64,000 nt of DNA from Sphyrna mokarran (lineage: Eukaryota): NCBI GenBank assembly GCA_024679065.1, contig JAGIQG010000004.1:54188001-54252000 (forward strand), read 5' to 3'. How positions within the stretch are numbered: position 1 is the first letter of the stretch; each line of letters begins with the position of its first letter. Position numbers and translations under genes: made by a program. Under the pieces are notes generated by a model. It did no database searches. It saw only the letters and a list, made by a program, of their open reading frames with translations, and was not told the origin of the DNA. Positions 600-43,034 of this stretch are shown in pieces.

Positions 600-643
600 C
601 TCCTCATCACTCTGACCAGCTTCCACAGAATTTCTTTTGACAT
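600..643 (-). CDS. Gene A exon 5, cytoplasmic (DVKRNSVEAGQSDEE); gene continues beyond the left edge
   Basis: Acceptor ttcttttctctag|AT and donor GAG|gtaaga; 44 nt, phase 1 to 0; homologous to 34058-34101. Confidence 0.8.
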
Positions 644-1186
644 CTAGAGAAAAGAAGAAATTGAACTTGAGTAACTTTCTGAATGTAAGCAAAATGAACA
701 CTTTTACTGCCAAAAGGAAGGAGCCTTGAAAATTGGAACATTGTGATGCACCTCCAATGGAGCGCACTGCCTTTAGCGTGATAATGATAAACATGTGATA
801 AGAGAGTCGCTAAATTGCGATTGAAATACCGTCAGGGGTAGATGTAAAACAGTTTGCCAGTTCCATATCAACCATTTTACATTGTCGCAGGAAATTACTT
901 AAGAATGTTTACACTACAAGGTCCTGATATTTTTAAAAATGCGGAACGTTAAGAAAGTGTACAAATTGACTGAACAGTTCGAATTTGAAAATTGAACATC
1001 TGCATTTCAAAATTGATTTGCGTTGCCACATTCAACTCTCTTGAGGCATCAACTTTGTTCTTTAAAGATGCAGCAGGATCTCTTTATTCCTTGTAATGGA
1101 GCACTATTCACCCGCTGTTTATGTCTTAACAGTTTAACTGGGCGTAACAAAATAAAAGTTTGCGGTGAAATAAGAAAACTTCTTAC

Positions 1187-1285
1187 CAGCTGAAGCTTTT
1201 AATTTGAATCTCGTCAAAATAATTATCAACAGTACAACAGCCAGTGCACCACCTGCACATCCCAAAATGAGCTTAAATTCGATTT
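1187..1285 (-). CDS. Gene A exon 4, transmembrane (EIEFKLILGCAGGALAVVLLIIILTRFKLKASA)
   Basis: Acceptor tatttcag|AA and donor G|gtaaga; 99 nt, phase 1-1; hydrophobic span followed by basic residues; paralogue at 34539-34637. Confidence 0.85.
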
Positions 1286-1992
1286 CTGAAATAGTTACAA
1301 GATCAACAAATGATTGAAATAAGAAACTATAGAACACAGCGAGATTTATACACAATCTTGAGTGTAGCACGGGAGGACGCGGTGCAAAGTTGTCTTTCCT
1401 GTAATTGTATCCATTTACTCTGTGTGGGGACCGACACTTTTATTTCCACAGGCAGTAGCGATAAAAAGATCATAATGTGTCCCAAACAATAGTAACGCAA
1501 TTTGTGGAGGAAACTATAAAGGCGCAGGAAATACCTCTCTAGACGTGAGGGCTTTTCGTTCAGAGTAAAGGGACTTATACTTGTGCCACACCAGACAGAC
1601 GCGCAGTGGCTATAAAGAATAGCAAAGTTTTTCACTCTTCAGCACTGTCAGCCCGAGAACACCGACTGCAGCTTTTAGTAGGTAACAAGAACAACTTGCA
1701 TTTATCATTCCAAAATGCCCAAACGCGCTTTATCAAACACAATCAAACTACATAAATAATATGATGACAGCTGGGGGGTAGAGTTCAGGGAGCGTGGAAA
1801 ATGAGAGAGTTGGAAAGGCGGGGATACTCAGAGCGGGAGTTGGATTCAGACAGCGGAAGGCACTGCGTGGGGATAATGATTTTACCATACATCCAAATAA
1901 AATATTCGGGATATAAAAGTGACTACCGAAACTGATCATTTTTATGTGTATGTTTATTTCACTCGGCGAGGAATAAGCACATTAACCAAAGA

Positions 1993-2975
1993 ACCATAGA
2001 AAAGTTAAAGCCACTCGGCTCATTTTGTCCATAGCAGCTCATGGACACCAGGTGTCCTTTCTAATCTCACCTTCCTGCGTTCCGGCCCATAGCCCTGCGG
2101 CTTACTTAAGGTGCAGATCCAGCTACTTTTTTAAAAAAAGAGTTTAGGGTCTCTGCTGATTTAAAATAGGGATCATGAGCCTTGGGAGTCCCTGGGAAGT
2201 GTGTAAATAGGTGATGATATTGATATACTTGTTTTTATCCTACAGGTGCTTTGGTCCACCTTGTTGTCTAACAAGGGGAAACACGCGATGGGTCGTGAGA
2301 GGGCTGCTCTTGGATTTTTTTTCGAGAGTATCTTAGTGCTTCACGTCGTTAGTGTACGCTTAACCTGGGCCATTTGATGGGCAACACGACAGCTCAGTGA
2401 CTATCGCTGTGCTGTGCAGATACATGGATTTGGGCCTGTGTCTGTGGGAGTTTGCGCATTCTCCCCGTGCTTGCGTGGGTTTTCTCCGGGTGCTCCGGTT
2501 TCCTCCCACATCCCAAAGATGTGCTCTTAGGCTAATTGGCAAAACAAATTCTCCCTAAATTGTCTCAAATTTGGTTTTCAGTCCATAGATCTACAAACAT
2601 GGACAGGGATCGTGGGTAGAGGTGGGAACATCGGGGTGGCGGCGCGGCTCGTTGGGCCAAAGGGCCTGTTTCCCGTGCTGTTTTGTTCTTTGTTCTTTGT
2701 TCTAACTCAGGCAGCGAATTCCAGACCCCATCTCCCTTTGTATAAAAAAAAATTCCTCGCGTCTTCTCTACACCTTCTGCCACTTGTATTAAATCTATGA
2801 TCCCTGTTTCTAGAATTCTCCGTCAAGGGAAACGATTTCATCCTGTCCATTCTATCTCTTCCCCTCATAATTGTGTACACCTCTATCAGGCCCCTTCTCA
2901 GACTTCTTTATTCCAAGGAAAATAATCTCAGTCTATCGAATCTCTCTTCACAGCAACACTTTTCTAGCTCCGACA
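1993..2975 (-). mobile_element. CR1-like LINE 3' fragment interrupted by a younger plus-strand insertion (2160-2705)
   Basis: Minus-strand CR1 ORF2 end and 3'UTR motifs lie on both sides of the insert. Confidence 0.6.
2160..2705 (+). mobile_element. 3'UTR of a CR1 subfamily carrying a V-SINE-like core
   Basis: Similar to 18700-19310, 51810-52350 and 54940-55400; ends in a (ttctttg)n tail. Confidence 0.75.
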
Positions 2976-39871: not shown

Positions 39872-41010
39872 TTGGAACATAGAACACTACAGCACAAACA
39901 GGCCCTTCGGCCCACAAGTTGTTCCCATCATATCAGTACCTATCAGGCCATTGAACTATCTGTAACTCCCAATCCCATTAAATCCCATATACTCATCCAG
40001 AAGTCTCTTAAAAGACCCAGCGAATTCGCCTTTACCACCATTGACGGCAGCCGATTCCATTCACTCACCACCCTCTGAGTGAAAAACTTACCTCTAACAT
40101 TTCGTCTGTACTTGTCCCCCAGCACCTTAAACCCGTGTCCTCTTGTAGCGACCATTTTAGTCCTGGGAAATAGCCTCCGAGAATCCACCCTATCTATTCC
40201 TCTCAACATCTTATAAACCTCTATCAGGTCGCCTCTCAACCTTCCTCTTTCGAGGGAGAAGAGACCTAGCTCCCTCAACCTATTTTCATAAGGCATGCTT
40301 CCCAATCCAGGCAACATCCTTGTAAATCTCCTCTGCACGCTCTCAATAGCTTCCACATCCTTCCTGGAGTGAGGTGACCAGAATTGCACACAGTACTCCA
40401 GGTAGGGTCTGACAAGGGTCTTATAAAGTTGCAGCATTACCTACCGACTCCTAAACTCAATCCCTCGATTAAAGAAGGCCAGTACACCGTATGCCTTCTT
40501 GACCATATCCTCCACTTGCAGGGCCGATTTAAGAGTCCTATGGACCCAGACCTCAAGATCCTTCTGCTCCTCAACACTGCCAAGGCTCCTACTCTTGATA
40601 TTATACACCTTCATCCCATTGGTCCTGCCAAATAGACAATCACACATTTATCCGCGTTGAAGTCCATCTGCCACTTTTCCGCCCAGTCTTGCATCCTATC
40701 TATGTCTCGCTATAACTTCTGACATCCCTCCAGACTATCCACAACACCACTAACCTTCGTATCATCGGCGAACTTACTAACCCATCCCTCCACTTCCTCA
40801 TCCAGGTCATTGATGAAAATGACAAACAGCAAGGGTCCTAGAACAGATCCCTGGGGCACTCCACTGGTGACTGACCTCCATGCAGAAAAAGACCCATCCA
40901 CAATCACTGTCTGCCTTCTGCAGGCAAGCCAGTTCTGGATTCACAAGGCCAAAGCCCCTTGGATCCCATGCCCTCTCACCTTCTCAAGGCGTCTTGCATG
41001 GGGGACCTTG
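39872..41010 (-). mobile_element. Young CR1 LINE 3' portion in the V-C1 intron of gene B
   Basis: ORFs 40710..40907 ([17 protein letters not shown]), 40441..40647 and 39943..40437. Confidence 0.95.
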
Positions 41011-42487
41011 AACACGCTTTGTTTGGACAATTTTCTCTCTTATCAGTCCCACATTTAAAATTTACTGCTGTGAAATTGTGTCTGCTCGTTCACTGTTTAA
41101 TTAGAAGTAAATTCCCTCATTAAGTTTATATAGATTTATATACTATAATCAATCTCCTTAATATATTTTATTTCACATTCTACTTTGCCGACATTGTAGT
41201 AACAGCAATTAGTAATTCACACGCATTATGTTAGTCTTTATTCCCAACAAAGCCTCAGAATTCCTCCATTATTTTCCCAAGGATCTGTTTAGGTACATAC
41301 TAAACGCGACAGAATTCAGTCTGGCCAGAAAGAAGTCAGTGTTCTCTCGGTCTCCTGCCTCAACTTCCTTCTACATTTCTATGCACAGTGTGCATAGAAA
41401 TTACAAATATGGGACCTCAGACGTTCATAGAAATGTTCGATGATATTCTCTTTATCGGTTGTGAGTGGATCAGAGAAAGTCTTTTTGGATGTACCCAGAG
41501 GTGCAAACTTGGGCCTTGGGCACTTTAACTGTCCTGCAAGGTCTAAGGGTGGATTTTAGCATTGAGGACAAGATCAACATACCCGCTCTTACTAGTTTGT
41601 AGAATCCCTTGTGGAAAGAGAAATTCATTAACCAAATCATTAACGGACACAAATGCAAAATACAAATTGCGGATATAGAAACAGGGGCCCATTCGGCCCC
41701 ACTAGCTTACTCTTCCATTCCTTTACATCATGTCTGGTCCATTTGTCCGACTTAGTTCGATTCTCTTGAAATCCACGAATTATTTCCCTTGATATGCATT
41801 GCAAATTTAGTACAACTCGACTATTCGATTGCAATTTTGAGCAAGGACTGACAAATTACTTTCTGTATGGAATACTCATGACTGGAAGAAGGCGAGTTTT
41901 CGCCTGAATGGATGCAAGAGGCACCTTATTGGGATGAATAAGATGGTCATTAATGTTGCAGAAATTAGTTAATTTCGGCAGTGTTAAAATTGTTTCAATC
42001 AAAGGTCGTAGATCTGAAACCTTGACTCTGTCCATTGATGTTCAATGACTTGTTTTTATTTCAGGTTCCAAGCATATGAAACAGTTTGCTTCTGTACAAA
42101 AATTGTCCCCAGTGTCTCACTTCGGCGCCGTTATTTTGGTGAGAGGGATTCTGATCATCTCGTCCCATCGACTAATCGCAAACTGAGATTGCGATAGTAA
42201 TCCCATTTCATTGTTTTGGCGCAATAATAATTGTAACTTCATACAAGGCACACATTGGGTGAAATGTTACGAGGACGAGAGCGGGTGAAATTGATCTTGA
42301 GCAATGGCACAAAGTGGGCGACTGGGAATCGAGGGAGGGCCGTTCTAAATCAAGGTCAAGGGAAAAGAAAATTCCAGCAGTGTAAAACGAATCCATCATT
42401 ATCAGGTTTTCATCTAGTGATAGAAGTTCAAATAACATAAATCACACATAGCTGAAAAGTACCTTTTCCCGGTAGTTTGACACTTAC

Positions 42488-42793
42488 CGTACACAGTAAG
42501 CTGGGAACCACTTCCATCCCCAATCTTGTTATGTTGATGTTTTACTGAACAGTGATACATTCCGGAGTCTGCAACACTCGAATTCAGAACTTCGAATGAA
42601 CTACTGCCCTTCTTTAAATAAATTTTCTTTCTGTTGTCTGGTTCCAGAACAGATTCCTCACCCCGCTTCCACCAAGAAACTTCAGGAGCGCTTTCAAGCA
42701 TTGGAAATGTGCAGAACATGGAAACACTGTCACCCCTGGCAACCATCAAGTGTTTAGGGAACTGATCCACTTTGCTCGAAGTTACTTTAGCGG
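42488..42793 (-). CDS. Gene B exon 2, Ig V-set domain with germline-joined J-like G strand
   Basis: Acceptor tgttttatag|CC and donor TACG|gtaagt; 306 nt. Motifs VDQFP, MFCTF, VSWW, DSGMYHC and GSGSQLTV. Confidence 0.94.
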
Positions 42794-42979
42794 CTATAAA
42801 ACAAACAGCAAAGAATGTTGATAACTAGAAAGAAAAATAACTTAACAGAGGAAAATAAAAAAAGAGACACCAGCAGTCACATTGGAGAAGGACAGCATCT
42901 ATTTTTACAATGCATACAGCTGTAGGCGTAAAATACAATTTAAACTGTTCTAAAACGGCAAAGTAAGAACTCAGGTTAC

Positions 42980-43034
42980 CTAGCCAAACCAGGCTCAGAA
43001 GAGCTATGTACTGAACTGTAACTCTCATCGACAT
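42980..43034 (-). CDS. Gene B exon 1, signal peptide (MSMRVTVQYIALLSLVWL)
   Basis: ATG at 43034, donor CTAG|gtaacc; 55 nt, phase 1. Confidence 0.87.

Follow-up and report, generated by a model that had tools for sequence, protein, structure and literature searches.

A 64-kb stretch of the genome of Sphyrna mokarran (G000:C993:54188001-54252000, hereafter the window) carries two minus-strand genes, A and B. They probably represent a germline-encoded family of cartilaginous fish in which a V domain with its own J-like G strand (VJ), one C1-set domain and a transmembrane (TM) segment are followed either by a tail with inhibitory motifs of the immunoreceptor tyrosine-based kind (ITIMs) or by an arginine-containing TM end. 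Judged from their motifs, its members would act as paired innate receptors like SIRPs and LILRs, because two unrelated 3' ends are joined to closely similar ectodomains. The family is apparently undescribed and ancient, with an antigen-receptor-like ectodomain.

Architecture of genes A and B

Exon delimitation agreed with an earlier annotation made from the letters of the window (the sequence-only reading), which had reported two genes with identical exon sizes (55/306/297/99/44 nt) and phase-1 domain junctions (Table 1). All splice sites of gene A in the window were of the AG/GT type. The proposed order of a V domain and one C1-set domain was likewise found in both genes by Pfam, and their C1 domains showed FYP and a distance of 13 residues between the B-strand cysteine and the C-strand tryptophan, features given as C1 hallmarks in passages of PMC2785349. 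Between proteins A and B, identity was 56% for the V domain and 80% for the C1 domain. In each gene, the V exon encodes its own G strand and is spliced directly to the single C1 exon.

Neither recombination signal sequences (RSSs) nor separate J segments had been noticed previously, and none were found here: a scan of the window for RSSs gave 0 matches, against a mean of 0.8 in 20 shuffled sequences, and the G strand lay within the V exon in 35/35 family exons. The description of this strand as J-like holds for its position and for G-x-G, which is kept in 30/35 V exons, but not for the phenylalanine or tryptophan of F/W-G-x-G, present in 0/35; an N-G-S/T-G sequon occupies the site in 19/35.

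The 267 amino acids ascribed to gene A are those encoded in the window. With two further exons, the complete gene has seven exons and encodes 349 amino acids, including an uncharged TM segment and a tail with three ITIM-consensus motifs (VAYAHL, LTYTTV and VEYAEV, at residues 277, 313 and 336); a fourth tyrosine motif, TIYSQT, misses the consensus. This signalling end was overlooked in the sequence-only reading. For gene B the length of 262 amino acids was correct, but its product is cut short within the 44-nt exon by a TAG in frame, at a site where a paralog at 54.516 Mb has CAG. The donor of that exon is GTCGGG, and the last two tail exons of the same paralog had no match for gene B in the window. 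Gene B may derive from an inhibitory gene by tail loss, and is either a tail-less, non-signalling receptor or a young pseudogene.

Inhibitory-type and arginine-type members

For 33 C1 loci, 10-20 kb of downstream DNA was assessed, with a TM exon assigned to every locus by a heuristic. Downstream exons of the ITIM type were recognized, by our own judgement, at 18/33 loci, and 6/33 had a terminal exon encoding a TM segment with arginine at its outer end and a tail of few residues. When the genome was queried with an ITIM exon, 13/13 matches were on C993. Within a close subfamily, the genes on the minus strand, including A, were of the inhibitory type, and four genes on the plus strand, at 54.88-55.03 Mb, were of the arginine type. 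Both kinds of 3' end recurred in several species.

The closest pairs of ITIM and arginine members had V identities of 95%, 89% and 97%, with nonsynonymous divergence (dN) of 0.021, 0.055 and 0.013 and synonymous divergence (dS) of 0.21, 0.10 and 0.34, respectively. Three ITIM-arginine pairs were aligned as DNA: their V-C1 introns either gave blocks of 63-75% identity or failed to align, and unbroken homology extended no further than 170-280 nt beyond C1. A single clade of the close subfamily's four arginine genes was rejected on the V exon (approximately unbiased test, p-AU 1.5e-28, 11 rows). Inhibitory and arginine copies were intermixed in trees, and likewise in a chimaera, in which an ITIM protein (P0036) and an arginine protein (P0042) were identical over their first 129 residues and 97% identical over 225. 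Passages of PMC3533184 and PMC3716694 define paired receptors and the rule that links a TM arginine to FcR-gamma; two features of such receptors, different genes in a cluster and similar ectodomains on ITIM and charged-TM members, were both found on C993.

Several observations weigh against a paired receptor family. Within the DNA examined, 9/33 loci fitted neither class, and one of the six arginine exons (62.97 Mb) was placed by the heuristic, 8 kb from its C1 exon. P0036 and P0042 were taken from two annotation sets and may belong to a single gene with alternative ends. Positive selection was not seen in the pooled V and C1 counts (pN/pS of 0.48 and 0.42, respectively). These values indicate that purifying selection contributes, and the high dS and low dN of two of the pairs fit purifying selection as well as conversion. 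Finally, signalling function was read from motifs alone.

If the members do form a paired system, ITIM members such as gene A would use the compact V domain as ligand binder, probably as monomers, and would recruit SHP-1/2 and thereby damp leukocyte activation. Arginine members would signal via an adaptor of the FcR-gamma or CD3-zeta type with an immunoreceptor tyrosine-based activation motif, and the genome holds candidate genes for both. Exon-limited exchange and purifying selection would maintain the match between the ectodomains of activating and inhibitory members, which is what would be expected of a family whose inhibitory receptor is a target of pathogens. Two zeta/gamma-family TM exons were detected, on C335 and C446, which by recognition only we take to be CD3-zeta and FcR-gamma; the C446 exon, at about 11.045 Mb (L162:1402-1596), has the look of FcR-gamma. 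Complex prediction for one arginine-TM exon with an FcR-gamma-like TM dimer scored 0.10 and gave no answer. For cartilaginous fish, PMC4016189 (2014) reported no FcR-gamma; later reports may exist.

Two members, at C993 50.24 Mb and 54.60-54.62 Mb, have a tryptophan-rich TM segment followed by cysteines, and their closest homolog, P0119, has no ITIM. By these features they are a possible third signalling class.

Family size, V domain and taxonomic range

The V exon of gene A gave 37 matches (77/77 candidates scored), all on C993: 21 at 54.19-55.03 Mb, 15 at 62.40-63.31 Mb and one at 50.24 Mb. The tandem family of the sequence-only reading thus proved real. The C1 exon gave at least 67 matches, at least 36 of them on C993 at the same places as V (150/205 candidates scored). 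In total, 36 V exons (35 open) and 27 C1 exons were delimited. B-type tail exons, orphan or damaged and without V or C1 matches of their own, occurred at G000:C993:54269315-54270835, 54322331-54323838 and 54383092-54388698, and point to repeated duplication of two-gene units and to decay.

Spacing between the V-domain cysteines was 54-59 residues in the family, versus 66-68 in three VJ outgroups, and the V model (predicted local distance difference test, 91) had no C'' strand. Its fold matches tied between NCAM2 Ig1 (Z 15.3, root-mean-square deviation (rmsd) 1.5, 92 residues aligned), VNAR (14.9, 2.0, 96) and T-cell receptor (TCR) V domains. For the V-C1 model, B7-H6 shared the top place with several proteins, Rst and PD-L2 among them (values for B7-H6: Z 16.0, rmsd 4.2, 188 aligned). 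Since so many immunoglobulin (Ig) folds tie, fold searches assign no family; the absence of SIRP among the 50 matches listed in each of three fold searches rules nothing out. When PDB sequences were searched by profile with V or C1 by itself, multi-domain proteins dominated the results.

Searching across chondrichthyans, as the sequence-only reading had proposed, yielded homologs in sharks, rays and Callorhinchus, mostly on one long contig per assembly; 28/28 and 41/42 proteins were from cartilaginous fish (one of the 42 is unnamed). Their names (SHPS-1-like, NCR3LG1-like, tapasin-related-like, Ig-lambda-like) are the generic '-like' annotations that had been anticipated. The picture of a lineage-expanded family is accurate as regards expansion and a non-rearranging VJ-C1-TM structure, but the family is older than the shark-chimaera split and hence not lineage-specific. 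A profile search of 1.84 billion representatives was considered for its best 150 matches, down to about 1e-45, of which 20 were named: seven were family-like, all from cartilaginous fish, and 13 were multi-domain proteins, including those of lungfish, coelacanth, frog, turtle and teleost. Restriction to cartilaginous fish is not proven by this search, because weaker relatives such as SIRPs fall below about 1e-45.

No description of the C993 cluster was found in full-text literature (supplements were outside the scope, and an earlier name elsewhere is possible), nor in passages of related papers such as PMC9652883 and PMC6795676. The term 'SIRP' was absent from the main texts of PMC10751288 and PMC12227049, the UrIg and UrIg2 papers.

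Phylogenetic position and other Ig loci

Separate V and C1 trees, also proposed earlier, were run with NKp30-like, B7-H6-like, Ig light chain (IgL), Ig heavy chain (IgH) and UrIg-like sequences; outgroup labels (loci on C1548, C1437, C994 and C838) were assigned in this analysis from motifs and layout. The family formed its own clade in both. In the V tree (75 rows, with 35/37 own V exons, one with stops being left out), this clade (95/86) was separate from the V domains of turtle and of the NKp30-like and B7-H6-like genes. In the C1 tree (56 rows, 16/27 own exons), an unstarred 94/88 split put it (100/99) together with B7-H6-like domains on one side and the domains of IgL, IgH and UrIg-like genes on the other. 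These trees have few columns, long branches meet in them, and they contain no SIRP, PRARP, NITR, tapasin or TCR sequence. As to synteny, for which major histocompatibility complex (MHC) paralogons had been suggested as a check, the cluster adjoins AMFR, on a chromosome other than those of the NKp30-like, UrIg-like and IgH genes.

C1548 carries at least nine VJ exons resembling NKp30 (C1548:107.45-107.58 Mb, L141-L144). It also has, at 81-82 Mb, about 29 IgL-like C exons that are nearly identical to one another and, at 111.4 Mb, a gene of the UrIg-like kind with multiple C1 domains. A long VJ exon that stands by itself (C838:32.59 Mb, L145:3104-3487) connects to the NKp30-like group through long branches. 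The turtle multi-V proteins P0104 and P0175, whose arginine-type and neutral TM segments are similar to those of the shark family, were not accepted as orthologs: their V domains group with NKp30-like domains and match C1548 first and C993 second. With P0156, they are multi-VJ proteins that have either an arginine-type TM segment and short tail or a neutral TM segment and tyrosine motifs, and on these features possibly constitute a separate paired family under generic names.

Neighbouring genes and window features

An AMFR/gp78 gene (RING, CUE, G2BR) lies left of gene A, with about 37 kb between the last exon of A and the first of AMFR, and an NDRG gene lies beyond it at C993 53.94-53.97 Mb. 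The first cluster is flanked on its right by a gene with a double helix-hairpin-helix and by another exon, which we take to be EEPD1-like and KIAA0895-like, respectively. Exons of these two kinds are adjacent on the AMFR chromosome (L112:3994-4902, L120:7890-8630), possibly a retained ancestral linkage. NDRG paralogs were located on C993, C668, C1326 and C994; C794 gave a single additional match. SEP-domain genes were located on C668 and C1326, the former with an NSFL1C UBA exon and a FAM110 neighbour. With NDRG paralogs on both C993 and C668, the two chromosomes are paralogous, C668 being the one that holds the NSFL1C-type gene. MyoD-family and inward-rectifier genes were not on C993 but on C1437.

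Within the window, positions 50556-51647 are a retroelement remnant (reverse transcriptase match). Positions 30127-30882 and 11447-12097 look by eye like fragments of long interspersed nuclear elements and of Penelope-type elements and had no Pfam matches.

Table 1. Exons of genes A, B and C (window positions unless a contig coordinate is given).
Feature	Position	Strand	Remarks
Gene A leader exon, 55 nt	6944..6998	-	ATG and GT donor
Gene A single VJ-type V exon, 306 nt, 3' end GTGTQLTVY	6460..6765	-	Pfam V-set, structure model
Gene A C1-set exon, 297 nt	3188..3484	-	Pfam C1-set
Gene A uncharged TM exon, 99 nt	1187..1285	-	
Gene A first cytoplasmic exon, 44 nt	600..643	-	
Gene A, two ITIM-bearing exons beyond window	G000:C993:54181731-54181621 and from 54179877	-	
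Gene B leader exon, 55 nt	42980..43034	-	
Gene B VJ-type V exon, 306 nt, 3' end GSGSQLTVY	42488..42793	-	Pfam V-set
Gene B C1-set exon, 297 nt	38521..38817	-	Pfam C1-set
Gene B uncharged TM exon, 99 nt	34539..34637	-	
Gene B first cytoplasmic exon, 44 nt, in-frame TAG, weak donor	34058..34101	-	
Gene B second cytoplasmic exon, relic, 5' part only	29630..29725 (end approximate)	-	
Gene C (third copy), broken C1 exon, first half only	63860..64000 (lower end ~63860)	-	
Gene C V exon, just beyond window	G000:C993:54253928-54253614		

Relation to SIRPs, antigen receptors and B7-H6

In the human genome, the SIRP genes are next to NSFL1C at 20p13, and 16q holds AMFR and NDRG4. In the shark, this SIRP-type synteny was not found: the NSFL1C-type gene and FAM110 are on C668, the cluster is on C993, and no Ig exon was detected in 300 kb around NSFL1C (225 kb upstream). 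The V-set and C1-set ectodomain of SIRPs is present in A and B. The V-C1-C1 arrangement of human SIRP-alpha, -beta and -gamma is not, A and B having one C1 domain; two C1 domains occur in a few homolog models (P0006, P0067). This difference weighs little, since SIRPs of other species include two-domain forms. In the ESM Atlas, the top two clusters for the full-length ITIM homolog P0014 were SIRP-alpha (0.93; 199 and 197/256 features). The ectodomain alone gave no SIRP-named cluster in 10 rows by features and SIRP in row 3 by structure; as SIRP clusters led only with the full-length protein, the tail carries much of this signal. In two rankings of PDB sequences, the SIRP-alpha ectodomain came second and third, with Ig chains close behind. 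The tyrosines of the tail, unaligned, have a spacing that appears similar to that of SIRP-alpha. Pfam searches for CD47 and an opioid-precursor search for PDYN recovered no candidate, a blank that carries no information on either gene. By its predicted domains and tails, the family probably works like SIRP. With a likelihood somewhat below even, it could be a large cartilaginous-fish sister family of SIRP on the genome-duplication twin of the SIRP chromosome, of which sharks would have kept the AMFR-side copy and tetrapods the NSFL1C-side copy.

It is unlikely that the genes are true cartilaginous-fish SIRP orthologs moved to another chromosome, with gene A as a CD47-reading SIRP-alpha. Such orthology would be in line with the ESM Atlas result for full-length P0014, the PDB ranking, the Ig-free surroundings of shark NSFL1C, the many RefSeq names 'SHPS-1-like' and the inhibitory, activating and tail-less members that mirror alpha, beta and gamma. 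It is at odds with the ectodomain-only search, the position beside AMFR, the single C1 domain, the short V domain without C'' and the use of arginine versus DAP12-type pairing, and PMC13262535 places SIRPs at Tetrapoda.

The sequence-only reading had also linked such genes to relatives of receptors that preceded RAG. The layout of VJ plus a true C1 domain stands, but this idea is weakened because the V domain is short and lacks C'', the C1 clade is apart from Ig and UrIg-like domains, and the chromosomes differ. That the genes are relics of pre-RAG antigen receptors which dimerize like TCR or Ig light chains is very improbable. The unsplit V exon, the conserved G-x-G, a Foldseek list filled by Ig light chains, UrIg2 in second place by profile and the ties of the V model with VNAR and TCR V domains all argue for it; the lost F/W, the sequon in its place, the lack of spare extracellular cysteines in A and B and the 94/88 split in the C1 tree argue against. 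A germline-joined Ig light chain was ruled out by the TM segment, the ITIMs and the C1 tree.

An expansion of B7-H6 (NCR3LG1)-type ligands, suggested by several automatic RefSeq names, by the tied first place of B7-H6 among V-C1 folds and by the neighbouring B7-H6-like domains in both trees, is scarcely credible given the family's own clades, the receptor character of paired ITIM and arginine ends and the separate B7-H6-like genes (label assigned here) that accompany the MyoD-family and inward-rectifier genes on C1437.

If the family is a sister of SIRP, paired receptors of the VJ-C1 kind, in ITIM and activating versions, would be older than the jawed-vertebrate radiation, and in sharks the family would be the chief innate checkpoint system of the LILR/SIRP type. 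With the cluster on a chromosome paralogous to that of NSFL1C, the idea that SIRPs arose by duplication can be tested by one tree and one synteny survey. A conserved paired VJ-C1 family with dozens of genes in sharks, rays and chimaeras would provide concrete candidates for myeloid or NK-like inhibition and activation in sharks, and the debate on antigen-receptor origins gains a sizeable class of VJ-C1 genes that are unsplit and do not belong to the MHC-linked set.

Comparison with known systems

SIRPs and the shark family are both clustered, non-rearranging V and C1 receptors with C1 hallmarks and with ITIM, activating and non-signalling members, and the shark family sits on a paralog of the NSFL1C-bearing chromosome. 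Unlike SIRPs, it has about 37 genes in an AMFR neighbourhood, one C1 domain, a short V domain without C'' and an arginine TM segment instead of DAP12 pairing. LILR and PIR receptors are built of C2-type domains, unlike the V and C1 domains of the shark family. They resemble it in pairing ITIM members with arginine-TM members that use FcR-gamma, as described in passages of PMC3533184, and sections of PMC4016189 report that no C2-only homologs of the leukocyte receptor complex were found in sharks.

UrIg and UrIg2 are likewise elasmobranch non-rearranging VJ-C1 genes, according to parts of PMC10751288 and PMC12227049. They are antibody-like, with several C domains and linkage to the MHC or an antigen-receptor complex, whereas the shark family has a single C1 domain, a TM segment and a tail, and a separate clade and chromosome. 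NKp30 (NCR3) shares the single-exon VJ domain and an arginine in the TM segment; it differs in lacking a C1 domain, in its longer V domain (66 residues between cysteines versus 54-59) and in its candidate cluster on C1548, which is separate in the V tree. B7-H6 shares the V-C1-TM layout and a tied top fold match, but is a ligand, with candidate genes on C1437 in other clades. The NITRs of ray-finned fish are, according to bioRxiv 2021.06.11.448072, also clustered germline VJ genes and proposed natural killer (NK) receptors; compared by description only, they differ in a second domain that is I-type with its own J-like sequence rather than C1. From rearranging Ig and TCR genes, the shark family is set apart by its unsplit V and J, with 0 RSSs in the window and the G strand in the V exon in 35/35 cases.

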